Origin: an uncultured Myxococcales bacterium
Lineage (GTDB): Bacteria; Myxococcota_A; Polyangia; Palsa-1104; JAEUJZ01
Reading direction: 5' to 3'
NCBI GenBank assembly: GCA_964460115.1
Contig: CAYWPR010000001.1
Coordinates: 120,829-184,828, forward strand
Length of the DNA: 64,000 nt
Shown: positions 2,837 to 19,858 of the stretch, piece after piece
Layout of the letters: each line of letters begins with the position of its first letter
Numbering within the stretch: position 1 is the stretch's first letter
Translations under genes and position numbers: made by a program
Notes under the pieces: model-generated
What the model was told of the DNA's origin: nothing
The model's database searches: none
What the model saw: the letters and a program-made list of their open reading frames with translations, nothing else

Positions 2837-4135
2837 TTAGACGGCTTTGCTTGCGCGCTCTTCGCTTGGGTCGGTAGAGCGTTCATCGCCGGCCTTGGGC
2901 TTCAGACGATCGCGGCCGCTAACCCGGCGTACCACCGCACCGACCAGTGTTCCGCCGATTCCGCCGGTCACAAGCGACAGAAATAGCGAATCCAGCGCCG
3001 GCGCGACCAGCCGGTTGGCGGTGGCGTTTTCCGAGAAGTGCCAAGCAAACACAAGCGTCGCCGCCGAGGCCATAATGAGGTGCGTCTTATTCTTGGCATC
3101 GCCGATTTTCGCCTCGACGAAAATCATCGCCAACACGACGAGGATGCCAGTTACAAGAAACCACAGCGGATTTAAGCTTTGAGGATGGACGGCCACGTGC
3201 AGACCGCTTTGCAAGAGCTCATCGACCCCTTCGGTGCTCACCGATAATTCGTGGCCGCGCAGGTTGTTTGGCAGGCGGTGTTCGATTTGGCTGTTTTGCT
3301 GTGTCCAGTGCGTGCTGCCGCGCCGAGTGCGCATTTGGTTCGTCTTGACGCTGAACTCTCCGACTAGCTCATGGCTTTGTCCGCCATCGGCAGCGATCGT
3401 CAGCGCATAATCGACTTTGCGATCGCCGCCTGCTTCGGGGCGCAGGCTGCCGCTGACTGTGACATCGAACGGACCGGCGGCATTTTCACCGATCGGCATC
3501 TTCAGCGACTTGCTTTGCTCGGTCAAAACCGCCTCTGCCAAAACCTTGCGCGGCACCGCTTTGCGCAGCGTTGGATATCCCACCGATGCAGCCCAGACGA
3601 TGGCCAGCGCCGCAAACAGCGTACGGCCGTTTTTGCTCTCAATTAAATCGTAGGCAGAGCCAACCGTGCTGTAGATGGCAAACGCCAGAAGCCCGCCCGC
3701 CAAAACCAAGCCGACCATCCCCTCGCGCAAATAGTCCATCTTGTAGCCAATGACGCCGACGCCAAGGACGACAATGAAAGTGACTTGGCTAAGCCAGCTT
3801 TCCCAGTGCTCATCCATAAACCGCCTATAGGCAGATGGAGGCGGGCCTTTTTTGTCGTTTGTCTCAGAGGATGCGCGCGCTGGCGTACGGCTGCTTTTGC
3901 CGCCATCGCGCGTCGTATGTCGCCGGGTGGGCTTATAGCCATCGGCTTCGCCCTCTGCGCCATTGTTTCGGGTGGAAGTTTCGCCGCCGCCGCGGTCTAG
4001 TTCATCGTTATCTGCTGGTGCCACGAAAAGCCTCTCTTGCACAAAAGTCGCCGGGAAAATATCGTGCTCTCCCGCCCCATGCAAGAATAGCTGTGGCTGA
4101 GGCGCAATCGGGGCAATAAACAAGCGGCTGGCCAC
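2837..4135 (-). CDS. hypothetical integral membrane protein; N-terminal ~100 aa are low-complexity, alternative start near 3814
   Basis: Several predicted TM helices (FIVVLGVGVIGY, LVLAGGLLAFAIY, LWFLVTGILVVLAMIF). No recognisable family. The stop lies 19 nt upstream of the gluQ start, implying an operon. Confidence 0.5.
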   Translation of the reverse strand: MASRLFIAPIAPQPQLFLHGAGEHDIFPATFVQERLFVAPADNDELDRGGGETSTRNNGAEGEADGYKPTRRHTTRDGGKSSRTPARASSETNDKKGPPPSAYRRFMDEHWESWLSQVTFIVVLGVGVIGYKMDYLREGMVGLVLAGGLLAFAIYSTVGSAYDLIESKNGRTLFAALAIVWAASVGYPTLRKAVPRKVLAEAVLTEQSKSLKMPIGENAAGPFDVTVSGSLRPEAGGDRKVDYALTIAADGGQSHELVGEFSVKTNQMRTRRGSTHWTQQNSQIEHRLPNNLRGHELSVSTEGVDELLQSGLHVAVHPQSLNPLWFLVTGILVVLAMIFVEAKIGDAKNKTHLIMASAATLVFAWHFSENATANRLVAPALDSLFLSLVTGGIGGTLVGAVVRRVSGRDRLKPKAGDERSTDPSEERASKAV

Positions 4136-4158
4136 TTACCCTTTAGACTAGGTTAACG

Positions 4159-5301
4159 ATGAAGTCAGCGTCTTTTCGCCGTTTCATAGGGCGGCTTTTA
4201 CCCATTGCCGTCGCGATTGCCGCACTTTTATATGCCATCCATCGCACCGATCTGGACAAAACCTGGCAGCATTTGCGGCAGGCCTCGCTAGGCTGGCTGC
4301 TTTTGGTCTCGGCCGGCATGACGCTTTTGAACTGCGCCGCCGACACCTTCGCCATGTACCATGTCTTTGCCGGATTCGGACTGCGGCTGCGCTTTTTTGA
4401 CCTGTACACCATCCGCGCCGCGACCTACACGCTGGCGGTCATCCACTATCACGCCGGGCAGCTTGGCATCATCGGCTTTCTTTACCGAGTTGCGCGCGTG
4501 CCCTTGTCGCGGGCCAGCGCCTATATTCTTTTTATTATCGGCATCTGGGTGGCCCTGCTTGTGATCTTTGCCACCGGAGGCGCGCTGCTTGGCGGCCCCA
4601 AAGGACGAGCGGTGTTGCCTTGGCTGACGCCGTTTGCGCTGGGGCTTGTCGTATATGCCTTGGTTTTGCGCTTTCCGCCGCGCTTTTTGCGCGTGCCGCC
4701 CGTTGCGATTGCCGGCAGTGCGAAAGATTCGCTTTTGACCAATCTATGGCAGCGCGTGATTCGGCTGATCAGCAACTTGTGGGAGCCGCTGCACACCGCC
4801 GGCCTGTCCGGGCATTTGCGGGCGCTCCTCGTTCGGCTGCCGCACCTGGCAGTCCTTTTGATTTGGCATTTTATCGCCCTGCGCTGCTTTCATATCAAGG
4901 TGCCCTTTTACCTGGCCATGCTGTATCTGCCGGTAGTATTTGCCGTCGGAGCGCTGCCGATCAGCATTTTTGGCCTGGGCACCACCCAGATGGTGGCGCC
5001 TTACTATTTCGCGGATTTTGCCGGCTCGGGCCCTAGCGGCAACGCGGCAGCTTTTGCCTACAGCTTGTCGATGACCGCGATTTCCACGGTCAGTAACCTT
5101 GTCATGGGATTTTTGTTTCTACGCCGCGGCGCGCGGCTTGGTCTAAGCACCACGCCCGAACAAACGGCCAAGATGGAAGCTCAGCTTACAGCCGAAGCGC
5201 AGGCGGCTTCTGCTCCGCCGACGATTTCCGCCGAGGAAAACAGCGCATCCTTAGGTTCGGTGCTATACCCGAATTCGGAGGATCGGCTTATCCTTCACTG
5301 A
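4159..5301 (+). CDS. flippase-like / lysylphosphatidylglycerol-synthase-TM-region (UPF0104) family membrane protein
   Basis: Eight or so TM helices. The N-terminal pattern RLLPIAVAIAALLYAIHRTDLDKTWQHLRQASLGWLLLVSAGMTLLNCAADTFAMYHVF is typical of PF03706-like proteins. Confidence 0.5.
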   Translation: MKSASFRRFIGRLLPIAVAIAALLYAIHRTDLDKTWQHLRQASLGWLLLVSAGMTLLNCAADTFAMYHVFAGFGLRLRFFDLYTIRAATYTLAVIHYHAGQLGIIGFLYRVARVPLSRASAYILFIIGIWVALLVIFATGGALLGGPKGRAVLPWLTPFALGLVVYALVLRFPPRFLRVPPVAIAGSAKDSLLTNLWQRVIRLISNLWEPLHTAGLSGHLRALLVRLPHLAVLLIWHFIALRCFHIKVPFYLAMLYLPVVFAVGALPISIFGLGTTQMVAPYYFADFAGSGPSGNAAAFAYSLSMTAISTVSNLVMGFLFLRRGARLGLSTTPEQTAKMEAQLTAEAQAASAPPTISAEENSASLGSVLYPNSEDRLILH

Positions 5302-5308
5302 AACGCGT

Positions 5309-6271
5309 ATGCTTCCTGCGCTAACACTTCTAGCGTTGTGCTCGCTTCCCAAGCTGCTTTTGTACCCTGACGGCCCCGTGGAAAACGGCGGCGGAACGGT
5401 CAATCGCGCGCCTCCTCCGGTGGTTTTGGTCAAAAGCGCCGGAGTGCGCGCGGTGCAAGAAGTCGCCGACGCCTTCAGCGATGGCTGCCGAGTTCACGTG
5501 CAGCAGATTTATATAGGCGAAGGACCGACCGAGATTGCGCGCGCGCGTGAGATCGTCCAGTCCGCGCGCGTGCTTGTCGCGGTGGGCCAGCCGGCCATCG
5601 AACTGATGATTGGCGTGCGCGCGCACATCGTCTATGCGCTGGCCCCCGATCCGCCCCCAGGCCTGATTGGCACCAACAACAGCGCCCCGCCTTTACAGGT
5701 CTTTAAGGCGCTTTTGTCTCTGCGTCCGCACACGCGACGAATTGCCGCCATTTCTAGCGAACGGGGCGCGCATCGGCTGGTCCAAGCGCGGGCCGCGGCG
5801 CGCAGCTTGGGCCTGGAGCTTGTCGATCTGCCGGCCGACGACAGCCGTGCCGCAATTCGCGCGCTGCGCGCACTTTTTGTACCGATGCCCGATGAGCCCG
5901 CTGGAAAGACCGCTGGCTCTCCAGTCGACGCGCTGTGGCTGGGCGCCGATCCGCAGCTTGTCGATACGCAAGTGTTGCAATTTGTTCTGCAGATGCAGAT
6001 TCAGTGGCAAGTGCCGGTGGTGGCAGCCACCCGCCAACAAGTCAGCTTCGGAGCGCTTCTAACCGTCGATTGGCCGCTAGAAGCCGTCGGACGCAACCTG
6101 GCTTGGCAAGTCAATCAGCTACTTGATGATCCCGAACACATTGCAGATTTGGCCCGCGATCATCCCATGGGTACGCCCGAGACCGTCATCAACGCCCAGG
6201 CGGCCCGGCGTTTGGGCATTTCGGTCGAGGCGCTGCGCCCGCTTCCCCCCTGGAAGGTGATCGAGCGATGA
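5309..6271 (+). CDS. periplasmic ABC_sub_bind-like (PF04392-type) solute-binding protein associated with a sensor kinase
   Basis: Signal peptide present. Periplasmic-binding-protein-like fold with no ABC permease or ATPase genes nearby. A 4-nt ATGA overlap with the downstream histidine kinase suggests translational coupling. Confidence 0.5.
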   Translation: MLPALTLLALCSLPKLLLYPDGPVENGGGTVNRAPPPVVLVKSAGVRAVQEVADAFSDGCRVHVQQIYIGEGPTEIARAREIVQSARVLVAVGQPAIELMIGVRAHIVYALAPDPPPGLIGTNNSAPPLQVFKALLSLRPHTRRIAAISSERGAHRLVQARAAARSLGLELVDLPADDSRAAIRALRALFVPMPDEPAGKTAGSPVDALWLGADPQLVDTQVLQFVLQMQIQWQVPVVAATRQQVSFGALLTVDWPLEAVGRNLAWQVNQLLDDPEHIADLARDHPMGTPETVINAQAARRLGISVEALRPLPPWKVIER

Positions 6272-9114
6272 ACCCGGCCGACCCGGCAGCAGAATCTGCA
6301 GGTGCCGCGTCTACATCTTCGCCAATCTCTCAAGAAGAACCGACCACGCCCGCGGCCTCAGCGCTTTCTGACAGCACACCGATCGATCCCGTAGCGCCCT
6401 GCGAAATCCCGGTCCCCGAAGAAAGCACCTTAAAACTCGCAACCATTTCGCGAGCAGAGGCAAATGCCGCCGCGTCCCTGAGCACGGCGGCCGCCGAACT
6501 GGCCACAGCCGCCACGACCCAGCCAAGGACCACGCCCGGCCTAGAAGGCGACAACTTATCGATACGCGAGACCCTGCCGCTGGCCCATCCGCAAAGCGTG
6601 GTCGTCAAACCGGCCGACACTTCTGATCTGAGCAAAGCCGAGGAAACGACCGAGATCCTCGGGCTTGAGCAAAGCGGCGAAATCAGCGGTTGGGGCAATC
6701 TGCTGATGCGGCAGCGCTCCAGTTTCTTTCGGCAGGTATTTTTGTGGCTTTTGGCCATCTCGCTGCTGATGTCGGTGGGCTCGGGCGCTATCTATTACAG
6801 TCGGCAGCTTGCCTTCATTGAAGAAGACGGGCAGCAGCGGGCCGAGCTTTTGCTGGGTTATCTGGCGACGCAATCGCAGCTTGGTGCCTTTGCCGGTGAC
6901 AAAGTACTGCTGGAACATCCGGTGCGCCGGGTGATCGATCAAAAAGATGTCGTCTTTGTGGCCGTCTACGATCTTTCCGGAAAGGAACTTATCAAGTCGA
7001 GCGGCCGGATCGGTCAAGCGCCGCCGGATCCGCCGGCTGGCTTGCTTGGTGAAATGCTTCGCGCCACGCGACGGGATCCGCAGATCAAACAGAAGAACAA
7101 AAACGATATCTTTTTTCAAAACGTCGCCGCCAATCACAACCACGCGCTTATCAACGAAGAATGGAACTGTCTGGATTTGTATGCGCCCATCGTCATCAGC
7201 GAACGCGGCGGACCGGGCGTGGCGGCATTCGTTTCGCCAAGCGATCGACTGACCCATGAACGCGTCGTAGGTGTGGCGCGCGTCGGCCTGTCGCTGGAAA
7301 CCGCCAATGAGCGGCTGCGCGACGTATTGCGCTGGGGGGTGGGCCTGGGGCTGCTTTTGCTGGCCATGGGGGCAACCGCCGCCTACTTTATCGCCGGCCG
7401 CATCAGCGTCCCGATTTTGGAACTTGTGCGCGGCGCCGACGAAATTCGCAACGGCAATTTGCATCCACGCATCAATGTCTCGCGCACCGACGAACTGGGC
7501 ATGCTTGCCGAATCCTTTCTGCGCATGGCCGAGCGCCTGCGTGAAACCATGTCGGCGCTGTCGCGTCTGAACCGCGATCTGGAAAGCGAAGTCAAACGGC
7601 GCACGCGGCAAATTCGCCTGGCCTACGCGTTTACCTCTGTTTTGAATTCGCCCATCGATCGCAGCGACGAAGCCATGGATGCTGCTGATTTGACGGTGAT
7701 GCTCGATCAGGCCTTGGCGGCGCTCGTCGAGGCCACCGGCACCAAAGGCGGCGGCGTCTTTTTGGCCGATGAAAGTATCAGCGACGGCGAGCTTTTGGTC
7801 CGCGCCGCTTATGGCGTCTCGACGCATACCTTGGGTCCAACGCCGCCCCTCAAAGACTTTTTAGAGCAGTGCGTCAATAACGCCGATGGCATGGTGCCGA
7901 CGCTGCATGAAGCCGTACAGGTCGTCGGCCGGCGCCTTTTGGTGCCTTTGGTCTTTCGCAACCATCCTCTAGGCCTTTTGGTGCTGGTGCTTTGCGAGGA
8001 TGAGCCGCCCGAGCAAACGCTTCTAGAGTTCGTACGCCAGGCCGCAGCGCAGATGGCCATCGCGGTCAGCAATGCTCGCGCTTACGCCCGTCTGTCGCAA
8101 CTGGCCACGGAGCTGCGTCTGCGTACCGAAACCTTGGCGGCCCAGCGCGATCAGGTCAAAGCCCAGCGCGATCAGCTTGAAACGCAGCGCAATCAGCTTG
8201 AAGAGCAGCGCAATCAATTGGCGGCGCAGGGCATGCAATTGCGCATTCAGCGCAATCAGCTTCGCGAAGTGAATCGTCTGAAGTCGGAATTTTTGGCCAA
8301 TGTCTCACACGAGCTGCGCACGCCGCTAAACGCCATCATGGGCTACTCCGAGCTTATCGATGACGAGATCTACGGTCCCATTTCGGTCGATGCGCACGAG
8401 GCGGTCACCGGCGTCCTGGCTTCCTCGGCCAATCTGCTGCGCCTTATCAATCAGATTCTGGATCTGTCGCGAATCGAGGCCGGCAAGATGGAATTCTTCT
8501 TTGAAGAGATCGACATCTCGACGGTCTGTAGCGCGGTCATTCGCGAAGCCGAGGCGATGGGTCGCGACCGGCCCTATCGCGTAGAACTTACAAGCCCGCC
8601 GGGGCTGCGCATCGTCACCGATGCCGTGAAACTGCAGCAAATTCTGACCAACCTCATCGCCAACGCCATCAAGTTCACGGCCCAGGGATCGGTCTATGTC
8701 GAGGCCAAAGAACTTCTAGGCGGCGATGTGCAGATTTCGGTACACGACACCGGAATCGGTATTAAAAGCGAGAACTTGCAGCTTATTTTCGAGGAATTTC
8801 GCCAAGTGGACGGCAGCTCGACGCGGCGATTTGGCGGGACGGGCCTGGGATTGGCCATCGCCCGCCGCCTGGCCGAAATGCTCGGGGCGACGATCTCTGT
8901 CGAAAGCACATTTGGCGAGGGCTCGGTCTTTAGTGTGCATTTGCCGCGCATTCCACCGCCGCAGCCGGCTGGCCGCTCGCGACCGCGCGACGCCGACAGC
9001 AACCCATATGTCAGTATGTTCTCGGATCCTGAGATACCGCGCCTTTTGCAAACCAACCTACTTGCCGGACCCGGGCCGAAATTGCCGCCCGATCGGTCGC
9101 AAGACGAAACATAG
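6268..9114 (+). CDS. sensor histidine kinase: N-terminal disordered cytoplasmic region, 2 TM helices with periplasmic sensor, HAMP, GAF, coiled-coil S-helix, HisKA, HATPase_c
   Basis: HAMP motif PILELVRGADEIRNGNLHPRINVSRTDELGMLAESF. H-box FLANVSHELRTPLNAI. G-boxes DTGIGI and GGTGLGLAI. Heptad repeats QRDQ/QRNQ immediately precede the H-box. Confidence 0.9.
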   Translation: MNPADPAAESAGAASTSSPISQEEPTTPAASALSDSTPIDPVAPCEIPVPEESTLKLATISRAEANAAASLSTAAAELATAATTQPRTTPGLEGDNLSIRETLPLAHPQSVVVKPADTSDLSKAEETTEILGLEQSGEISGWGNLLMRQRSSFFRQVFLWLLAISLLMSVGSGAIYYSRQLAFIEEDGQQRAELLLGYLATQSQLGAFAGDKVLLEHPVRRVIDQKDVVFVAVYDLSGKELIKSSGRIGQAPPDPPAGLLGEMLRATRRDPQIKQKNKNDIFFQNVAANHNHALINEEWNCLDLYAPIVISERGGPGVAAFVSPSDRLTHERVVGVARVGLSLETANERLRDVLRWGVGLGLLLLAMGATAAYFIAGRISVPILELVRGADEIRNGNLHPRINVSRTDELGMLAESFLRMAERLRETMSALSRLNRDLESEVKRRTRQIRLAYAFTSVLNSPIDRSDEAMDAADLTVMLDQALAALVEATGTKGGGVFLADESISDGELLVRAAYGVSTHTLGPTPPLKDFLEQCVNNADGMVPTLHEAVQVVGRRLLVPLVFRNHPLGLLVLVLCEDEPPEQTLLEFVRQAAAQMAIAVSNARAYARLSQLATELRLRTETLAAQRDQVKAQRDQLETQRNQLEEQRNQLAAQGMQLRIQRNQLREVNRLKSEFLANVSHELRTPLNAIMGYSELIDDEIYGPISVDAHEAVTGVLASSANLLRLINQILDLSRIEAGKMEFFFEEIDISTVCSAVIREAEAMGRDRPYRVELTSPPGLRIVTDAVKLQQILTNLIANAIKFTAQGSVYVEAKELLGGDVQISVHDTGIGIKSENLQLIFEEFRQVDGSSTRRFGGTGLGLAIARRLAEMLGATISVESTFGEGSVFSVHLPRIPPPQPAGRSRPRDADSNPYVSMFSDPEIPRLLQTNLLAGPGPKLPPDRSQDET
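8140..8265 (+). repeat. six in-frame 21-bp tandem repeats (gcScagcgcRatcagSttgaa-like) encoding heptads AQRDQVK/AQRDQLE/TQRNQLE/EQRNQLA/AQGMQLR/IQRNQLR
   Basis: Direct reading of the sequence. The repeats lie inside the HK CDS, in the coiled-coil linker between GAF and DHp. Confidence 0.85.
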
Positions 9115-9133
9115 GATTTGATCGAGTGCTCAT

Positions 9134-9526
9134 GTGACGACCAGCCTTACTCCGAATGACCGTACCGTGCTTCTCGTCGATGACGACGTTCACAACCAGC
9201 GAATTTTTGATCGGGTGCTGCGCCACTCGGGATTTCATGTGCGCATGGCCGCCACCGGCGATGAGGCCCTGCGTGAGGCCCGCGCCCATCTGCCCGACCT
9301 CATCCTGATGGACCTATCGATTCCGGTGATTGACGGATGGGAATGCTCGCGCCAGCTTAAGGCCGATCCCAAGACCCAGCACATCATCATTTTGGCGCTA
9401 ACCGCCCATGCCATGCGCGGCGATCAGGAACGCGCCATTGCCGCAGGCTGCGATGGCTACCTGGCCAAACCAATCTCACCCAAAAGACTGGTCGAAGAGG
9501 TCAAACAGCGTCTACAAATTAGCTAA
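9134..9526 (+). CDS. stand-alone response regulator receiver (CheY-like) protein
   Basis: Receiver signature VLLVDDDV...LILMDLSIP...ALTAHAMRGDQERAIAAGCDGYLAKP, with conserved Asp and Lys. No output domain. Confidence 0.9.
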   Translation: MTTSLTPNDRTVLLVDDDVHNQRIFDRVLRHSGFHVRMAATGDEALREARAHLPDLILMDLSIPVIDGWECSRQLKADPKTQHIIILALTAHAMRGDQERAIAAGCDGYLAKPISPKRLVEEVKQRLQIS

Positions 9527-11428: not shown

Positions 11429-12871
11429 ATGCGCTACATCCCGCATACTGATGCAGACGTCGCAGAGATGCTGCGCGTCATCGGCGCTCAATCGGTTGAC
11501 GCGCTGTTTGCACACATTCCTGCGTCCCTGCGCCCTAGTCGGCCGCTCAACATTGCCGCGCTGGACGAAGCGGCGCTGCTTGCGCATTTGGGCCAAATCG
11601 GTGCTCATAGCGTTCCGGCAGTCGGCGATACGCCTCGCGAATTGGCGGCGCTGTCGTTTTTGGGGGCGGGGCTTGTGCCGCACCACATTCCGACGGCGGT
11701 CGATGCGATGCTATGGCGCGCCGAATGGTATACTTCCTACACGCCCTATCAGCCCGAGGTGGCGCAGGGAACCCTGCAAGCCATTTTTGAATATCAAACC
11801 CTGGTCGCCGAGCTCTTCGGCTCGCCGCCCAGCGCCGGAGCAGCGACTTATATCAGCAACGCCAGCATGTATGACGGCGCGTCGTCGGCTGCCGAAGGTG
11901 TGCTGATGGCCAGGCGGCTAACCGGGCGTTCCGCCGTGCTGTATTGCGGCGCGCTGCATCCGCAGTATGCCGACACCATTAATTGTTATCTGTCGGGGCT
12001 GCGCCGCCCGAATGAAAAGCTCGTGCATCAAGTCGGACTTAGTCCGGCGGGTGACGGGCGCATCGATATGGACGGGCTGGATCGCACGCTCAAAGAGCTT
12101 GGCAATAGCCTGGCCTGCGTGGTCGTGCAGTCGCCCAACTACTTGGGCGTCATTGAAGATCTAAACGCCATCGCCGAGCGAGTGCATGCCGCCGGCGCAC
12201 TTTTGGTGGCCGTGTGCACCGAGCCTTTGGCCATGGGACTGTTGCAGCCGCCCGGAACGCTTGGAGCCGACATCATCTGCGGCGAAGGCATGGGCCTGGC
12301 GCTGCCTCCGACGCTAGGCGGGCCGGGAGTAGGCCTTTTTGCCGCACGCGCCGAATACGCGCGCCAAATGCCTGGACGGCTGGTGGGTGAAACCGTCGAT
12401 CAAAGCGGAAGGCGCGGCTACGTGCTGACATTGGCCACGCGTGAGCAGCACATCCGCCGCGAAAAGGCGACTTCGAACATTTGCACGAACCATGGCCTTA
12501 TCGCGCTGGCATTTACAATTCATCTATCGCTTCTAGGCCGCAGTGGTTTTGTGCGCTTGGCCGAGCTGAATTTGGCCAAAGCCGAATACGCTCGGCAGAA
12601 GCTGTCGCGGCTGAGCGGTTTTCGCTTGGCGGTCAGCGGACCGACTTTCAACGAATTCGCGCTGCGGCTGCGCGGCTCGATAAGTGCAACCACGGTGGTG
12701 GAACGGCTGCGCGAACAAAACATTTTGTGCGGCGTGCCGCTTGGCCAAGCCGGCTTTCGGCTTTCGACCCTGGCCGACGCCGAGCAAGTGCTGCTTATCG
12801 CCGTCAGCGAGCGCCACAAGCGCGAAGACATCGATCGTCTGGTCACCGCTCTTGATGAGGTATGTCCATGA
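11429..12871 (+). CDS. gcvPA: glycine dehydrogenase (decarboxylating) subunit 1
   Basis: N-terminal MRYIPHTDADVAEMLRVIGAQSVDALF and about 480 aa. The split P-protein arrangement is typical. Confidence 0.9.
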   Translation: MRYIPHTDADVAEMLRVIGAQSVDALFAHIPASLRPSRPLNIAALDEAALLAHLGQIGAHSVPAVGDTPRELAALSFLGAGLVPHHIPTAVDAMLWRAEWYTSYTPYQPEVAQGTLQAIFEYQTLVAELFGSPPSAGAATYISNASMYDGASSAAEGVLMARRLTGRSAVLYCGALHPQYADTINCYLSGLRRPNEKLVHQVGLSPAGDGRIDMDGLDRTLKELGNSLACVVVQSPNYLGVIEDLNAIAERVHAAGALLVAVCTEPLAMGLLQPPGTLGADIICGEGMGLALPPTLGGPGVGLFAARAEYARQMPGRLVGETVDQSGRRGYVLTLATREQHIRREKATSNICTNHGLIALAFTIHLSLLGRSGFVRLAELNLAKAEYARQKLSRLSGFRLAVSGPTFNEFALRLRGSISATTVVERLREQNILCGVPLGQAGFRLSTLADAEQVLLIAVSERHKREDIDRLVTALDEVCP

Positions 12872-14370
12872 GCGCCGGTCAAGGCCCCATTTCCACGCGC
12901 CATCCGCTACACCAAGCGGCGTCGATTTTCGAAATCGGCGCCCCCGGACGCAACGGCGCGTCTTTGCCTGAATGCGATGTTCCAGCGGCCGATCCCGCGG
13001 CGCTTTATGGATCGCTGTTTCGTCAAAAGCCTGCGGCTTTGCCCGAGGTGTCCGAGGTCGATGTGACGCGGCATTTTACTCGTCTGTCGCGTTGGAATTA
13101 CGCCATCGACATCGGCATGTATCCGCTGGGCTCGTGCACGATGAAATACAATCCCAAGGTCAACGAACGGGTGGCCCGTTTGCCCGGCTTTGCGGGTGTG
13201 CATCCGGCCCAGCCGATTTCGACGCTACAAGGCGCCTTGGAGCTCATGCACAAGCTGGAAGGCGTCTTGTGCGAGATCTCAGGATTTTCGCGAGTGGCAC
13301 TGCAGACCGCAGCCGGTGCGCATGGCGAGCTTTGCGGCCTGATGATGATTCGCGCTTATCATCAAAGTCGCGGGCGGCATCCCAAAAAAGTGCTGATTCC
13401 CGATTCGGCGCACGGCACCAATCCCGCTTCAGCCAGCCTGAATCAGTTTGAGACGGTACCGCTGAAGACGGGTGTGGACGGCCTTTTGTCGGCGGACAGC
13501 GTCCGGGCAGCGATTGCTGCGCATCCCGACGACATCGCCGGATTGATGATCACCAATCCCTCTACCTTGGGCATTTTTGAAGAGCAAGTTTGCGACATCA
13601 CCGCCGCGGTTCACGCCGCCGGTGGCCTGGTTTATATGGATGGCGCTAACTTCAACGCGCTGCTCGGCAAGCTGCGCCCCGGCGATACCGGCGTTGACTG
13701 CATGCACTTCAACCTGCACAAAACCTTTACTACGCCCCATGGCGGCGGCGGTCCGGGTTGTGGTCCGGTTGGAGTAACCGCGGCGCTGGTCCCATTTTTG
13801 CCAACGCCGACGGTGGAAAAACACGGAGAGAGCTACACCCTAGACTGGAATCGCCCGCAATCGATTGGCCGGCTGCGCAGCTTCTTTGGCAACTTCGGCA
13901 TGATGGTGCGCGCTTATACGTACATTCGCGAGATGGGCGGCGCCGGGCTAACTCGAGCCACCGAGATGGCCGTGCTAAACGCCTGCTATCTGCGCGCGCT
14001 GATTGCGCACGAATATCCGCCGTGCTCGGAACGCCCGTCGATGCATGAAGTCGTGGTCTCGGACAAGAAACTGAAAAAAGAAACCGGCGCCCAAACCTTG
14101 GACATTGCCAAACGGCTGATCGACTACGGCTTTCATCCGCCGACGATCTATTTTCCGCTGGTCGTGCCCGGGGCGATGATGATCGAACCGACCGAGACGG
14201 AAGCCAAAGAAACCATCGACGAGTTCGCGCAAGCGATGCTCGCCATCGCCGAGGAAGCGAAAAAAACTCCAGAGCTTTTGAAAGCCGCGCCGCAACAGAC
14301 CGCCATGCGCCGTTTGGACGAAACTCGCGCCGCGCGCCAGCCCAAGTTGCGCTGGCTGCCCACGCCATAA
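12862..14370 (+). CDS. gcvPB: glycine dehydrogenase (decarboxylating) subunit 2, PLP-binding
   Basis: CMHFNLHKTFTTPHGGGGPG contains the PLP-lysine motif. A 10-nt overlap with gcvPA. Confidence 0.9.
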   Translation: MSMSAGQGPISTRHPLHQAASIFEIGAPGRNGASLPECDVPAADPAALYGSLFRQKPAALPEVSEVDVTRHFTRLSRWNYAIDIGMYPLGSCTMKYNPKVNERVARLPGFAGVHPAQPISTLQGALELMHKLEGVLCEISGFSRVALQTAAGAHGELCGLMMIRAYHQSRGRHPKKVLIPDSAHGTNPASASLNQFETVPLKTGVDGLLSADSVRAAIAAHPDDIAGLMITNPSTLGIFEEQVCDITAAVHAAGGLVYMDGANFNALLGKLRPGDTGVDCMHFNLHKTFTTPHGGGGPGCGPVGVTAALVPFLPTPTVEKHGESYTLDWNRPQSIGRLRSFFGNFGMMVRAYTYIREMGGAGLTRATEMAVLNACYLRALIAHEYPPCSERPSMHEVVVSDKKLKKETGAQTLDIAKRLIDYGFHPPTIYFPLVVPGAMMIEPTETEAKETIDEFAQAMLAIAEEAKKTPELLKAAPQQTAMRRLDETRAARQPKLRWLPTP

Positions 14371-14374
14371 AGTT

Positions 14375-15682
14375 TCACATCGGGCGTTCGCTAATCACGG
14401 CACGCACGATCGAAGTCAGGCCGTCCAGGCCCAAGCTCTTTTGCACCACCGCACGCACGCCCAGTTGCCGCAAAAGCGCCCGATCGCCGCGCGTGCTGCG
14501 CTGCGACAAAACGACCACCGGCAGATCAGTCGTATTTTCCTGACCGCGCAGCGTCGCGCAAACTTCGACTCCGTTTAGCTTGGGAAGCGCCAGATCCATG
14601 ATCACAAGGCCAAGTGGCCCGCGTTGCGCTTCCTCTAGCACCTGATCGCCATCGGTGACCATGATCACTTCGGCATCGGGCGCCGCGGCTTCCACGCACA
14701 TTCGCAACTGATCCAAAACCAGCGGATCCTCATCCGCCACCAGCACGCGCTGCGGCGGCCGGCGCAGCGTTTTGCGATGCGCGGCGATAAGCGCCGCCAT
14801 CAGCTCATCGCAGGTCTGAAATCGATTGCTCGGATCGCGCGCCACCGACTTGAGAACGGTGCGATCAAAGACCTCGGGCAAATCCGGACGAAACACCGAA
14901 GGAGGCATCGGATCCTCTTCTTGGTGTTTGCGCAATACGTCGGCAACTTCGCCGCTGGGAAATGGCAGCTTGCCGGCCATAAGCTCGTAGATGCTCATCC
15001 CCAGCGCATAAACGTCGCAACGGCGCGCTTCTTCAGGCGTGCGCGGACGATGACGAATTTGTTCGGGCGCCAGATAATCCGGCGTACCGATGATGTGAGT
15101 TCCCGAGCCACGCGAATCTGTGGATTTGGCCAGACCAAAATCCATCAGAATCGCTCGCGGCCCCGGCGCAACCATCACGTTGGCCGGTTTGATGTCACGA
15201 TGAATGATTCCGGCAGCATGAACAACCTGCACCGCGCGGCAAAGCTGCAGCGCCAGGCTGACCGCCAGATCCAGCGGAATGGCATCGTGAACGCGCACCG
15301 CTTGCACCAGGTACGAAGCCAGCGTCGGACCGACGATGTACTCCATGACCATATAGGGCACGGTCCGGTGTTCGCCCAGTGAATGCACGTGGACGACATT
15401 TTCATGGCGCACGGCCGCGAGCAATCGCGCCTCACGGCGAAATAGCGCCGCCTGTCCGGGATGTACCGCATGTTCCGGCAGCAGCACTTTGATCGCCACT
15501 TGCCGTTCCAGCGCCAGATCCTCGGCCAGATAGACCGCGCCCATAGCACCTCGGCCGATCTCGCGCACCAGGCGATAATTATCGGCCAATACTTCACCCA
15601 GGCGTGGCGCCCTGTCCGTCGCCTTGGACGAGGCGCTTTCCGCCGCTTTTCCGCTTGGCTGCTTACTATTCGACGGCGGCAT
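14375..15682 (-). CDS. Ser/Thr protein kinase with C-terminal receiver (REC) domain
   Basis: Hanks kinase motifs GRGAMGAVY, AIK, HRDIKPANV, DFGLAK and GTPDYLAPE. C-terminal VLVADEDPLVLDQL...LVIMDLALPKLNGVEV... is a CheY-like receiver with the acceptor Asp. Confidence 0.85.
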   Translation of the reverse strand: MPPSNSKQPSGKAAESASSKATDRAPRLGEVLADNYRLVREIGRGAMGAVYLAEDLALERQVAIKVLLPEHAVHPGQAALFRREARLLAAVRHENVVHVHSLGEHRTVPYMVMEYIVGPTLASYLVQAVRVHDAIPLDLAVSLALQLCRAVQVVHAAGIIHRDIKPANVMVAPGPRAILMDFGLAKSTDSRGSGTHIIGTPDYLAPEQIRHRPRTPEEARRCDVYALGMSIYELMAGKLPFPSGEVADVLRKHQEEDPMPPSVFRPDLPEVFDRTVLKSVARDPSNRFQTCDELMAALIAAHRKTLRRPPQRVLVADEDPLVLDQLRMCVEAAAPDAEVIMVTDGDQVLEEAQRGPLGLVIMDLALPKLNGVEVCATLRGQENTTDLPVVVLSQRSTRGDRALLRQLGVRAVVQKSLGLDGLTSIVRAVISERPM

Positions 15683-15986
15683 CTAGGGTCTGCTCTCGAT
15701 GACCTTAGCCACCTCCGCGCCATTCGGTACTACAACCATGGCTCGACGAGCAGTCACGGAGAGCGGCCCATTCAGTCTAACGCAGGCAGCCCTTTTCGAA
15801 CAATAAAGAATTGTTAATCTAAATTACGCAAATGAATCGATATATACATTTGTGTGGAATTGTGGGTACATATCGAGCGCTACATCGGAGCATATTTTCG
15901 AGGGGAAAGCGCAGAAGGGCGGTTTCGCGCAAGCTTTGGGGCGCGCTGGCACGAAAACCAGCCGCTAAAACTCAGCGACGGAAACG

Positions 15987-16017
15987 AATAAAGCCCTACG
16001 CATGCGCAGGGCTTTAT
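15987..16017 (-). terminator. rho-independent terminator downstream of rpsT; usable on both strands
   Basis: GC-rich hairpin AGCCCTacgcatgcgcAGGGCT, flanked by AATAA on one side and TTTAT on the other. It lies 35 nt beyond the rpsT stop. Confidence 0.6.
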
Positions 16018-16050
16018 GAAACGGAAGAATTGTGAAGAAGAAAGCGCGAG

Positions 16051-16428
16051 CTACTTCTTGGAATCGGTCTTGGCGGGCGCGGCCTTGCGAGCGGGAGCCT
16101 TTTTCACGGCAGGCTTACCGACTTGCGCGGCTTTGGCTTCTACCGCTGCTTTGATGACCGGCTTGGCTTTGTTAATGGCCAAGGTCAGACGCGAAATTTT
16201 GCGAGCCGCCGTTTTCTTGTGAATAACGCCTTTTTGCGCCGCGCGAGCAATTTGCTTCACCGCGCTTTGCACTGTCGCTTCTACAGACTCCGGAGCATCT
16301 TTTGCATGATCCAAAGCATTACGAGCTCGCTTGACGCGCGTCCGCATTGGAACTAGATGACTGAGATTGCGCGCACGGCGCTTGATACGCTGACGATTGC
16401 GTTTTTCAGCAGACTGGACGTTGGCCAA
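16051..16428 (-). CDS. rpsT: 30S ribosomal protein S20 with Lys/Ala-rich C-terminal extension; TTG start
   Basis: N-terminal (M)ANVQSAEKRNRQRIKRRARN matches the S20 consensus MANIKSAEKR. The ORF track extends to a TTG at 16440. Confidence 0.85.
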   Translation of the reverse strand: MANVQSAEKRNRQRIKRRARNLSHLVPMRTRVKRARNALDHAKDAPESVEATVQSAVKQIARAAQKGVIHKKTAARKISRLTLAINKAKPVIKAAVEAKAAQVGKPAVKKAPARKAAPAKTDSKK

Positions 16429-16506
16429 GGGATCCTCCAACAGGCGAAGCTGACTCCGTCTTTACGAAAAAAGACGTAGCCAAATGCCAGCTTTCGCGTG
16501 AAAAAG

Positions 16507-16580
<74 letters not shown>

Positions 16581-17377: not shown

Positions 17378-17725
17378 TTAGCCGGAAGACTGCTTGAGGT
17401 AGCGCATCCGCAGATCGTAAAGCAGACCTTCCAGAACGCGACCCTCTTCAGCAGTCAGATTGCCGCGCGTTTTTTCGCGCAGCATGCCCAAAATGTCGAT
17501 CGTCTGCTTGGCCAGCGGCAGATCGATGGGCGCAGCCGCGACCCCTTCTTCATGTTCGCCAAGGTGCATCAGCGCCGAAGTCGCTAGCGACATAATGAAG
17601 CTGATGAAGTCGATTTCATGACCATTGCCTAAGGCACTGGCCCCGGCATCGCTTGATTCATCAACTCCACCGTTGCCGGTGCCGGGATTCGCTACATCAC
17701 CTGATGGATGCTTGTCGTGGGCCAT
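17378..17725 (-). CDS. DUF1844 domain protein
   Basis: FISFIMSLATSALMHLGE...KQTIDILGMLREKTRGNLTAEEGRVLEGLLYDLRMRY matches the DUF1844 consensus. Confidence 0.7.
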   Translation of the reverse strand: MAHDKHPSGDVANPGTGNGGVDESSDAGASALGNGHEIDFISFIMSLATSALMHLGEHEEGVAAAPIDLPLAKQTIDILGMLREKTRGNLTAEEGRVLEGLLYDLRMRYLKQSSG

Positions 17726-17757: not shown

Positions 17758-18084
17758 CTATTCGTCGTCGTCTTCATCGTCGTCAAGATCGTCGTCTTCG
17801 TCAAGCAGGTCATCATCATCATCATCATCAAAGTCGTCGAGCAGATCCTTATCGCCGCTCAGTCGACCGGCGCTTGGCGGCGGCGAGACGCGAATCATGG
17901 GGCGCCGTTCGCGCACCCGAAGTTCGGGTTCTTCGGCAGGAACTGAGGGCGTCGACAGATCGGCCACATCCGGCAAAGCGCCAAGATGCGCTTCCAGATC
18001 GGCTCGCGTAAGCTCGCCGCGTCGAACGCGGCGCTCGATCACGCGTACATCCCAAAAGCGAGGGTCGGTGCGCTGAATAATCAT
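17758..18084 (-). CDS. small hypothetical protein with poly-Asp/Glu C-terminal tail; ORF 17758..18435 trimmed to the ATG at 18084
   Basis: MIIQRTDPRFWDVRVIERRVRRGELTRADLEAHL...DDFDDDDDDDLLDEDDDLDDDEDDDE. The upstream part of the long ORF overlaps the C-terminus of the neighbouring gene. Confidence 0.5.
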   Translation of the reverse strand: MIIQRTDPRFWDVRVIERRVRRGELTRADLEAHLGALPDVADLSTPSVPAEEPELRVRERRPMIRVSPPPSAGRLSGDKDLLDDFDDDDDDDLLDEDDDLDDDEDDDE

Positions 18085-18148
18085 AGGGCTTCGATATAAA
18101 ACCGCCGGCGGGCTGCTGTCAACTGCTGGTTCGCTGCAAATTTGGCGC

Positions 18149-19081
18149 CTAGATAATAGTTTTGGGATATGGCGCGGCGTCGGCGACGACAGCATCGTGG
18201 GCTTGAGCTTGGCCTTGGCCTTCAACAAGGCGCAATACATCCTCGAAAATGACCTCGGCGGGCTTAGGCTTATTGGGATTAGACGATTCTTGCGGACGCG
18301 CGTAAACGCGCAAAGCGCGCACCACGTCGCGGATGCGCAAGGCGCTATGCAGAATTCTTTCCAGCGTGACATTGAATGCTGCGAATTCACCGCGGAATTT
18401 GGGATTGGTGGCATTCGCATTGTCGATGTCGCCAAGAAGCATAGTCAGAGGATTTTGCAGTTTTTGTACTGACTCGGTCAGATTGTCGAGCGGTTGATTG
18501 ATGGCGGTGGTGACCCCGGCTGCGATGCGACCGACGGCGGCCAGCTTTTCGGTGCGCACCAGTTCGTCAAGCGTTGCCCGCAAGCGATCAAGAGCCACCG
18601 AAAGCTCGGCGTTGCGGCTTTGCAATTCGGCGCTGCGCCGTGCCACTTCCGATTCAAGCTGCAGGTTTAGTTCGGTGCTAGAGCGCAGCTTGGTGATTAG
18701 CGCCCGGCGTACCTCTTCGAACACCCGCTGCAGATTGTGAACTTCCAGCGTCGCAGGCACGCTAAGAGCTATCGGCCGCTGCAGCTCACCGCGCGACAAG
18801 GCCTGCGCACTGCGCTCGGTATCGCGCAGAGGCCTTACCACCCAAAAGCCGACCCCAGCCAAAAATCCGCCAAGCCCGATCAGGTACAAAAGTCCAAGCG
18901 ATACCAGCAGCGCTGGACGCGGCTCGGCCGGCAGCGCCGAAAAAAATCCCGCCCGGCCTAAAAGCAGCGCAGCAAATCCCAGGATCGCCATTCCGCCAAG
19001 TCCTAGGCCAAGCAGCAAACGGCCGCCGAGTGACCATTTCCAGATACAGATAGAGCGAAATAAAAAGTCTCGAAGGGCCAT
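18149..19081 (-). CDS. degenerate histidine-kinase-like protein: 2 TM helices, HAMP-like linker, DHp-like helix with His replaced by Thr, no ATPase domain
   Basis: TM segments GGRLLLGLGLGGMAILGFAALLLG and LLVSLGLLYLIGLGGFLAGVGFWVV. Coiled coil present. LAAVGRIAAGVTTAINQPLDNL aligns to the HisKA H-box G-V-A-H-E-I-N-N-P-L with H->T. The protein ends without a CA domain. The ATG at 19081 was chosen; the ORF track extends to 19453. Confidence 0.6.
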   Translation of the reverse strand: MALRDFLFRSICIWKWSLGGRLLLGLGLGGMAILGFAALLLGRAGFFSALPAEPRPALLVSLGLLYLIGLGGFLAGVGFWVVRPLRDTERSAQALSRGELQRPIALSVPATLEVHNLQRVFEEVRRALITKLRSSTELNLQLESEVARRSAELQSRNAELSVALDRLRATLDELVRTEKLAAVGRIAAGVTTAINQPLDNLTESVQKLQNPLTMLLGDIDNANATNPKFRGEFAAFNVTLERILHSALRIRDVVRALRVYARPQESSNPNKPKPAEVIFEDVLRLVEGQGQAQAHDAVVADAAPYPKTII

Positions 19082-19120
19082 CGGTAGCGCTCGCAGAGCT
19101 TTCAGTTTATAAATCTTCTC

Positions 19121-19858
19121 ATGAAGAGTGCTGAAATCTCCTTCGTTTCTGTGCTTGGCATTTGTGTCAGTTTGATAGTGCTTGCCGATGCCAAGCCAGC
19201 CGCTGCGCAAAACTGCTACCCGACGCATAGTGCCGGCTTTGCGCGCATCCGCTCGTTTGAGCCTAAGGCCCTGACCCAAGCGGCCGCGGACATGGAAGTG
19301 CGGGCCCTGTTTGGGCCGCGCATCGAGCTGTGCGAAGAAGGCGCCTACAAAGCGTTTATGGACAGCTTCAAAGAGTTTTCCGCCCAGGCCATGCGCGCCT
19401 CGAAAAACTCGCGAGAGAAACTGCTGCGTTTGGCCATCGCCGTCGTACGGCAAGCGCCCACGATGGTGCCGATCAAAGAGCTAAAGACCATGTCCAGCCA
19501 CTTTCGCCAAGTGCGCTCCGACCTAAATGCCACCGCCGATGACGTTGGCTTTGCGACGACTCCGCTATTGCAGCAGCTACTGGATGCGCTTTTGAATCTG
19601 GGACCGCCGAAGTCGGCCACCGGCACCATGGTGACCGTGGAAACGCAACCGCCAACGACCACGACCCCCTCCCCCTCGAACGGTACGCCCACTGGAAGCG
19701 TCCAGCCGATTCGCGTGCCCGCCGATCCCCTGCCGCCCTGGGCCGTCATCAAACTTTACGAGATGCGCGATCACGTCAAAGCGCAGGACTTGGCGGCGAT
19801 TCAGATCAAGCTTCAGGACATCATTAATTGGATCGAGAACAAAACTCGCGATCAGTAG
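19121..19858 (+). CDS. hypothetical secreted protein (signal peptide, Thr/Pro linker, helical C-terminal domain)
   Basis: Signal peptide MKSAEISFVSVLGICVSLIVLADAKPAAAQ. No known domain. Divergent from the pseudo-HK. Confidence 0.5.
   Translation: MKSAEISFVSVLGICVSLIVLADAKPAAAQNCYPTHSAGFARIRSFEPKALTQAAADMEVRALFGPRIELCEEGAYKAFMDSFKEFSAQAMRASKNSREKLLRLAIAVVRQAPTMVPIKELKTMSSHFRQVRSDLNATADDVGFATTPLLQQLLDALLNLGPPKSATGTMVTVETQPPTTTTPSPSNGTPTGSVQPIRVPADPLPPWAVIKLYEMRDHVKAQDLAAIQIKLQDIINWIENKTRDQ

Follow-up and report, generated by a model that had tools for sequence, protein, structure and literature searches.

Described systems related to the kinase-receiver protein

Several described signaling proteins resemble, each in part, the product of a gene that we analyzed in 64,000 nucleotides (nt) of DNA from an uncultured Myxococcales bacterium (contig CAYWPR010000001.1, positions 120,829 to 184,828 of the forward strand; this whole stretch is called the window, and coordinates refer to it unless another locus is named): a predicted Hanks-type Ser/Thr kinase (STK) fused to a C-terminal receiver domain (REC). 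The closest catalytic domains are those of the PknB/Stk1-type kinases (PknB, PknA, StkP), with 37-39% identity, the RD kinase type, a Thr in the activation loop and a Leu of the dimer interface (L58 here). Unlike these kinases, the kinase-receiver protein has no transmembrane helix and no PASTA repeats, and an intracellular receiver replaces the extracellular sensor. As the PASTA-kinase model NCBIfam NF033483 matches the kinase part alone, with 269 bits against a cut-off of 450, and no PASTA match is found, we rejected an identity as PASTA kinase. PknB- and StkP-type kinases phosphorylate DosR, CovR and WalR-type regulators.

Enzymatic response regulators (CheB, PleD, RpfG, the PP2C-type RsbY) likewise fuse an enzyme to a receiver with the full quintet of conserved residues; in the kinase-receiver protein, in contrast, the order is reversed (enzyme N-terminal, receiver C-terminal) and the output is a Ser/Thr protein kinase. 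Hybrid histidine kinases (HKs), the CheA-CheY protein FrzE of M. xanthus and RsbK of B. cereus share the order of a kinase followed by a C-terminal receiver, FrzE being also myxobacterial, and the receivers of FrzE and RsbK inhibit or buffer the attached kinase (PMC4546325, PMC4574943). Those proteins are, however, His kinases that phosphorylate their own receiver. To our knowledge a Hanks kinase cannot make Asp~P, and therefore the phosphodonor of the present receiver must be a separate protein.

In architecture the nearest analog is Rim15 of fungi: here too a Ser/Thr kinase precedes a C-terminal receiver, in which the residue three positions before the conserved Lys (K-3) is also non-aromatic and the role of which is still unstudied (PMC8510515). 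Rim15 differs in being a eukaryotic AGC/Greatwall kinase with other domains and without sequence kinship beyond the shared folds; moreover, the Rim15 receivers of S. cerevisiae, C. albicans and most ascomycetes lack the Asp, whereas the window protein keeps it (PMC8510515). AGC kinases (ROCK, PKA) match our protein only at E about 1e-25 and are surpassed by the bacterial PknB, PknA and StkP in both sequence and fold, so that membership in the Rim15/Greatwall group was rejected and the likeness is one of architecture only. Finally, cyanobacterial HstK-type dual kinases (STK-GAF-HisKA-HATPase) also join a Hanks kinase to a two-component module (PMC2176072), but they carry the transmitter (HK) half where the window protein carries the receiver half. 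With zero matches to HisKA or HATPase_c at E <= 0.1 in the kinase-receiver protein, an identity as hybrid or HstK-type dual HK was rejected as well.

STK-receiver architectures are probably catalogued in domain databases, and STK-REC proteins are already present, automatically annotated, in public databases; two familiar modules are combined, and this is no new kind of system. A literature search, with response-regulator censuses and the myxobacterial kinome survey outside its coverage, turned up no functional work on Ser/Thr kinase-receiver fusions from bacteria.

Architecture and conservation of the fusion

The gene and the parts of its product are as follows:

14375..15682, reverse strand: complete STK-REC gene, 435 amino acids (aa), stop codon TGA at 14375-14377; orthologs have the identical architecture
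15593..15682, reverse strand: N-terminal 30 residues, low-complexity, Ser/Lys/Ala-rich, disordered and poorly conserved
14819..15577, reverse strand: Hanks-type (RD) Ser/Thr kinase domain, residues 36-288 (Pfam PF00069, PknB match, Foldseek)
Kinase codons, reverse strand: K65 15488-15490; catalytic D163 15194-15196; D181 of DFG 15140-15142; activation-loop T195 15098-15100
14750..14818, reverse strand: linker, residues 289-311, with the terminal helix of the C-lobe (291-305) and then LRRPPQ (secondary structure of the AlphaFold2 model)
14390..14749, reverse strand: receiver, residues 312-431 (Pfam PF00072, PleD and CheY alignments, (beta-alpha)5 in the AlphaFold2 model)
Receiver codons, reverse strand: D317/E318 14729-14734; acceptor D363 14594-14596; S393 14504-14506; K415 14438-14440

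The open reading frame (ORF) occupies exactly 14375..15682 on the reverse strand, with an in-frame TAG immediately 5' of its ATG. An earlier note on this DNA, made from the sequence alone, had described a Hanks-type kinase fused to a C-terminal receiver, and this is borne out by Pfam: Pkinase (PF00069) matches residues 36-288 (E 5.1e-45, 154 bits, cut-off 31.7) and Response_reg (PF00072) residues 313-426 (E 1.3e-16, 61.2 bits, cut-off 30.2). No other Pfam domain was found in the 435-aa protein, and it has no hydrophobic segment (maximum Kyte-Doolittle 19-residue mean 1.47). For these two reasons the protein is predicted to be a soluble cytoplasmic kinase, and the receiver is therefore its only candidate input module.

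The kinase-receiver fusion proved real, and it is conserved among uncultured relatives within the myxobacteria. Orthologs with 77-96% identity and the same two Pfam domains occur in metagenomes and metagenome-assembled genomes labeled Polyangia, Myxococcales or Polyangiaceae, and more distant kinase-receiver proteins follow at 32-49% identity. Exact-sequence look-ups gave six independent orthologous loci (L081, L083/L084, L085/L086, L087, L092 and L093), all of which carry the fused ORF without interruption; since no fewer than six independent Polyangia/Myxococcota assemblies have this uninterrupted ORF, an assembly or frameshift artefact is ruled out. Purifying selection on both domains is strong: against four orthologs, the ratios of nonsynonymous to synonymous substitution rates (dN/dS, Nei-Gojobori) lie at 0.02-0.06 in the kinase domain and at 0.03-0.15 in the receiver; synonymous sites are close to saturation. 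The N-terminal 30 residues, in contrast, are only 40-87% identical to those of the orthologs (83-97% for the kinase domain).

An AlphaFold2 model built with 22 family members as input (mean predicted local distance difference test score, pLDDT, 84.5; predicted template-modeling score, pTM, 0.69) comprises a bilobal kinase, the helix 291-305, a six-residue connector and a five-strand/five-helix receiver (312-431); the connector, LRRPPQ, runs directly into the first strand of the receiver. Disordered in the model are the N-terminal 22 residues (pLDDT about 31-33 for residues 1-20) and residues 185-195 of the activation loop. A Foldseek search against the PDB superposed only the kinase domain, and no solved structure in it spans both domains.

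Composite forms of the same architecture were obtained from a profile search of 1.8 billion representative proteins: STK-REC-STK-REC (P0147, 873 aa), STK-REC-STK (P0214, 819 aa) and STK-STK-REC (P0231 and P0243, about 660 aa). The top hits of this search were dominated by multi-kinase proteins with additive scores, and the size of the family is not countable in this way. Many of the top matches had kinase domains in tandem and a C-terminus of the PEGA, FGE-sulfatase, PD40 or TCAD2 type. Scanning genome contigs with the whole protein returned only generic actinobacterial and other kinases, swamped by the DIKPANVM-type pattern, and no synteny was gained.

Catalytic motifs of the kinase domain

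By every sequence and fold criterion tested the N-terminal domain belongs to the Hanks family, and Ser/Thr phosphorylation is predicted. Among solved structures it comes closest to the kinase domains of PknB and PknA from M. tuberculosis and of StkP from S. pneumoniae (E 1e-51 to 1e-44), PknB being the best match (E 1e-51), and the modeled kinase domain superposes on PknB with a template-modeling score of 0.91 normalised to the target and a root-mean-square deviation of 2.5 A. The claim that all catalytic motifs are intact holds on proper alignment, also for the VAIK Lys. In the N-lobe we found G43-x-G45-x-x-G48, K65 of VAIK and E84 of alphaC; the catalytic region and C-lobe contribute H161-R162-D163, K165, N168, D181-F182-G183, A205-P206-E207, D223 and R287. 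As an HRD-type kinase it has an activation loop that is rich in Ser and Thr (residues 187-196) and invariant in orthologs; within it T195 aligns to T171 of PknB, and the nearly invariant L58 aligns to L33 of the PknB back-to-back dimer. It is the one Hanks kinase within the 64 kb.

Across 22 kinase-receiver proteins the catalytic residues are invariant, save for a sub-clade in which DFG has become DFS and for isolated substitutions in single members (G48A in P0012, R162H in P0054, T200S in P0039). The sub-clade, with DFS in the Mg-binding loop, consists of P0016-P0019 and P0040, and it has this change in common with the cyanobacterial dual kinases (PMC2176072).

Phosphorylation residues of the receiver

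The C-terminal domain appears to be a true receiver rather than a pseudo-receiver, and by its residues apparently phosphorylatable. Aligned to E. coli CheY, D317/E318 correspond to D12/D13, D363 to D57, S393 to T87 and K415 to K109; the first receiver of PleD, the best solved match, yields the same quintet of D317/E318, D363, S393 and K415. Thus the acceptor Asp that had been claimed earlier and the rest of the Asp/Lys/Thr triad are confirmed on both alignments, with Ser (S393) at the Thr position; the second residue of the acidic pair is Glu (E318), not Asp.

Of 22 family members, 21 (down to 33% identity) retain D363 and every one retains K415, and relatives whose receiver is missed by Pfam still align with Asp and Lys. 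In P0016-P0019 the first acidic residue is Ala or Thr in all four, and three of them have Ala at the T/S position. The receiver elements most conserved among orthologs are alpha4 and beta5 (mean column conservation 0.96 and 0.97), compared to 0.72-0.85 for beta2, alpha1 and alpha2; the alpha4-beta5 surface is the usual output face of receivers. A word-index search with the receiver only gave nine proteins: three aligned over short stretches with 79-92% local identity, the other six were response regulators with E about 1e-4, and no clue to the origin of the receiver was obtained.

Proposed receiver control of the kinase and its alternatives

Both domains are intact, under selection and always fused, no membrane or sensor domain is present, and the phosphorylation residues of the receiver are conserved across the family. 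We propose that the protein is a soluble RD-type Hanks kinase that would act as a response regulator with a Ser/Thr kinase output, gated by Asp phosphorylation of its receiver, a proposal to which we give about an even chance of being right. The fusion thus probably links His-Asp signaling to Ser/Thr phosphorylation. In the scheme that follows we infer that phosphotransfer takes place, which way it runs and how it affects activity, and also that there are a partner HK and substrates. An HK or phosphorelay encoded elsewhere would phosphorylate D363. The resulting change at the alpha4-beta5-alpha5 face might release an inhibitory contact with the kinase domain, as in FrzE and RsbK, which are precedents for a C-terminal receiver that controls the attached kinase (PMC4546325, PMC4574943); alternatively, receiver-mediated dimerization might bring two kinase domains together, a route suggested by the alignments of T195 with PknB T171 and of L58 with PknB L33. 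The kinase domains would then trans-autophosphorylate the activation loop, with T195 as candidate site, and the active kinase would phosphorylate its substrates.

A number of observations weigh against gating by Asp phosphorylation. Secondary positions of the receiver depart from the canon, with V412 instead of an aromatic residue at K-3, S416 instead of Pro at K+1 and the bulky Q394 at T+1; in four distant relatives Ala and in one Cys takes the T/S position, several have a degenerate acidic pair, and P0040 has no acceptor Asp. At none of the orthologous loci examined is an HK a conserved neighbor. Furthermore, the linker is up to about 50 residues longer in distant relatives, and this variation across the family argues against rigid coupling; it suggests that docking or dimerization would fit better than a rigid helical connection. 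Apart from the linker, the same observations speak for a receiver that works independently of phosphorylation, as a constitutive dimerization, docking or localization module like FrzS-type or pseudo-receivers, while the kinase would be set solely by autophosphorylation of its activation loop and by expression level; the Rim15 receivers of well-studied yeasts, which lack the Asp in a domain that is still needed (PMC8510515), point the same way. Nevertheless the full quintet is intact in the window protein and all close orthologs, and no receiver residues persist more widely in the family than D363 and K415, which is hard to explain if the phosphorylation chemistry were irrelevant. We regard a phosphorylation-independent receiver as unlikely, if deserving of some weight.

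The earlier note had placed the kinase under the control of a His-Asp phosphorelay or, alternatively, seen in it a phosphate sink, and either is plausible and favored by the conservation of D363 and K415 across the family. As a sink or branch point the receiver would drain an HK or Hpt protein in competition with another response regulator, and the fused kinase would not be regulated by this, merely co-localizing the sink or reporting independently. The intact receiver is consistent with this, and the C-terminal receiver of FrzE has been interpreted as a short-lived sink (PMC4546325). Such a function would, however, leave an active kinase of 280 residues superfluous, yet the fusion is kept in every relative, including STK-REC-STK-REC forms; the conserved alpha4-beta5 face suggests an output contact over a pure sink, and neither an HK nor a competing response regulator is linked to the gene. 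Taken as a complete account, the sink seems to us very unlikely.

Information might also flow in the reverse direction, with the kinase phosphorylating its own or other receivers on Ser/Thr and thereby blocking or modifying His-Asp signaling, so that the receiver would be a substrate or gate. Ser/Thr kinases that act on response regulators are well documented in Gram-positive bacteria (review, PMC4601284), in the AlphaFold2 model no more than six residues separate the receiver from the C-lobe, and conserved Ser and Thr residues lie near its active site (S393, S396, T397). A mere Ser/Thr substrate would, on the other hand, not need the conserved Asp, Lys and acidic pair, and of the readings weighed here we consider this one the least probable.

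Histidine kinases in the window and near relatives

Three HKs in the window, at 6268, 23542 and 28434, had been called orphans. All three are bona fide HKs of the form HAMP-[GAF]-HisKA-HATPase_c, but the one at 6268-9114 (HAMP-GAF-HisKA-HATPase_c) is not an orphan, since a receiver gene of its own follows 8 nt later:

9122-9523, forward strand: stand-alone receiver gene, 134 aa, Response_reg 94 bits, 8 nt after HK 6268-9114

A hidden Markov model derived from the family detected exactly two receivers in the window, this one and that of the kinase-receiver protein. A further claim, of a DHp-only pseudo-HK at 18149, did not stand: the ORF at 18149-19453 (reverse strand) has only a sub-threshold HAMP match and neither HisKA nor HATPase_c. 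The ORFs next to it are:

17758-18435, reverse strand: ORF of 225 aa that overlaps 18149-19453, with a poly-Asp/Glu tail and no Pfam match
17378-17725: DUF1844 gene

As no HK is conserved near the orthologs, the window HKs have no special claim as partners of the kinase-receiver protein; one of them is already paired, and a role of these nearby HKs as likely partners was dismissed as unsupported. The window HKs share only about 30% identity with an HK found 6 kb away from the L081 ortholog. The orphan arrangement of the kinase-receiver gene may leave room for a partner HK encoded elsewhere. In a distant relative (P0017, 46% identity; locus L089, 5355-7663) the gene is divergent from a 581-aa ORF that is followed by a 207-aa HATPase_c ORF; this pair resembles an HK split by a frameshift, and no other linked HK candidate was seen among the family members.

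Candidate promoter region and palindrome

Upstream of the gene lies an AT-rich island with the following elements:

15769..15919, no strand: AT-rich island, minimum GC 0.36, lowest-GC stretch of the window
15774..15803, reverse strand: promoter-like block, TTGTTC (15803..15798), 18-nt spacer, TAGACT (15779..15774)
15815..15827, reverse strand: palindrome GTAATTTAGATTA (TAAT-N4-ATTA), candidate site for a transcription factor (operator or activator site), with the -35-like hexamer 12 nt downstream

The island had been reported before, and proved stronger than described: it is the single lowest-GC stretch of the window (36-38% GC), and 15780-15900, with 38% GC, is the sole region that low in the 64 kb. 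The background against which it had been set, about 66% GC, was too high, the window average being 59.9%. Its standing as a candidate regulatory region is supported by a block conserved among the upstream regions of orthologs; because this block, comprising the palindrome and the -35-like and -10-like hexamers, lies inside the island, we consider the latter a genuine candidate promoter and operator region. Hexamers and spacing are repeated in L087, L085/L086 and L081 (with TACACT as the -10-like element in L081). A scan for consensus promoters did not call the TTGTTC-18-TAGACT block; the leader of the kinase-receiver mRNA predicted from it is about 85 nt, with transcription expected to start near 15767.

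The pattern GTAATTNNNATTA has one match in the 64 kb (15815-15827). L087 has a single copy at the equivalent position (911-923), and the L085/L086 intergenic region has two, at a distance of 121 bp (L085 9837-9849 and 9958-9970; L086 5279-5291 and 5400-5412). Within the window, L087 and L085/L086 it lies nowhere but in the region upstream of the kinase gene, which in these relatives separates that gene from the gene cluster described below. A GAATTGT direct repeat had been singled out as well. Its copies exist, at 15808, 15857 and a third at 16027, but a regulatory role was rejected: window-wide we counted 9 occurrences where 6.9 are expected (24 of 100 shuffles equal or exceed this number), and the heptamer is not conserved in orthologous promoters. 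The TAAT-N4-ATTA palindrome and the -35/-10-like pair, rather than GAATTGT, are thus the candidate cis elements.

Neighboring genes and a lost divergent partner

The genes and terminators that flank the kinase-receiver gene are:

12862..14370, forward strand: gcvPB, last gene of gcvT-H-PA-PB, convergent with the kinase gene
15982..16015, reverse strand: rpsT terminator hairpin, 13-bp stem and T-rich tail, 3' end of the upstream transcription unit
15979..15961, reverse strand: second hairpin after rpsT, 8-10-bp stem
16051-16440, reverse strand: rpsT (ribosomal protein S20), directly downstream of tRNA-Met(CAT)
16506-16580, reverse strand: tRNA-Met(CAT), with a near-consensus promoter TTGACA-16-TAAAGT at 16624-16597

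Downstream, the convergence with the gcv operon was correctly recognized in the earlier note: gcvPB, preceded by gcvT, gcvH and gcvPA, has its stop codon ending at 14370, the kinase stop codon lies at 14375-14377, and 4 nt separate the two. The closest ortholog locus, L087, has the same gcv-convergent arrangement. On the upstream side follow each other, on the same strand as the kinase gene, a dienelactone-hydrolase-like gene, a sigma-70-like promoter, tRNA-Met(CAT), rpsT, a double hairpin terminator and the AT-rich island. The hairpins (15961-16015, reverse strand; minimum free energy -31.7 kcal/mol, z = -3.65 against shuffles) are probably a tandem intrinsic terminator. The rpsT start is probably the second TTG (16428), behind a GGAGGA Shine-Dalgarno sequence, and the product ends in a tail rich in Lys and Ala, roughly 35-40 residues long.

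The gene for the kinase-receiver protein stands head to head, in each of the six orthologous lineages, with a conserved gene cluster; this cluster is its only conserved neighbor in relatives, the downstream neighbors being different in nearly every lineage. The cluster is four genes long where contigs reach far enough (L081, L083/L084, L085/L086); in L087 and L093 the contig ends within it, and in L092 an interruption follows the second gene. Its coordinates are:

L081: 4944-9584
L083/L084: 5153-9619
L085: 5103-9740
L086: 466-5181
L087: 2-661
L092: 5529-7644
L093: 3-2116

The genes encode a lipoprotein-like protein of 364-396 aa with a CxxCH motif, a protein of approximately 400 aa with weak PSCyt2/PSCyt3/PSD2 matches, a protein of 222-247 aa and a protein of 473-478 aa with a twin-arginine (TAT) signal; searches of Pfam, NCBIfam and PDB sequences found nothing beyond these weak matches and the TAT signal. 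In L092 a phage-integrase gene (4121-5392) breaks the cluster after the second gene, here truncated to 305 aa; this disruption is independent of the one in the window.

Of this exported-protein cluster no trace was found in the 64-kb window by tblastn, and similarity to L087 ends, by blastn, just upstream of the palindrome, with the rpsT terminator coming next. Because the homology stops there and the cluster is absent, a rearrangement breakpoint is placed at about 15830-15980; the rearrangement left the kinase promoter in place and removed its usual divergent partner. As the divergent regulatory region is common to gene and cluster in relatives, the pathway is probably tied to the exported-protein cluster, a link that has been lost in the window. 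One could go further and see in STK-REC a dedicated His-Asp-to-Ser/Thr converter that works through dimerization of the phosphorylated receiver, which would set off trans-activation of the kinase, and forms, in Polyangia, a regulatory unit with the divergent exported PSCyt/TAT cluster through the shared palindrome region; this fuller picture we hold to be quite unlikely.

Implications

From the viewpoint of annotation the protein is ordinary, one more multi-domain kinase in a signaling-rich myxobacterial genome. Cross-talk between two-component systems and Hanks kinases has, however, usually been studied as kinase-to-regulator phosphorylation between separate proteins, and a covalent kinase-receiver fusion in which both active sites are intact by sequence is a compact natural test case for the opposite direction, i.e. 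a Ser/Thr kinase under the control of Asp phosphorylation. There is a parallel, too, in Rim15 of fungi with its still unexplained receiver, and as a small, soluble and conserved family the kinase-receiver proteins are suited to biochemistry and structural work. If STK-REC were indeed a dedicated converter, it would be the first defined bacterial pathway with a Hanks kinase as response-regulator output, and the STK-REC-STK-REC forms would be built-in two-step cascades.

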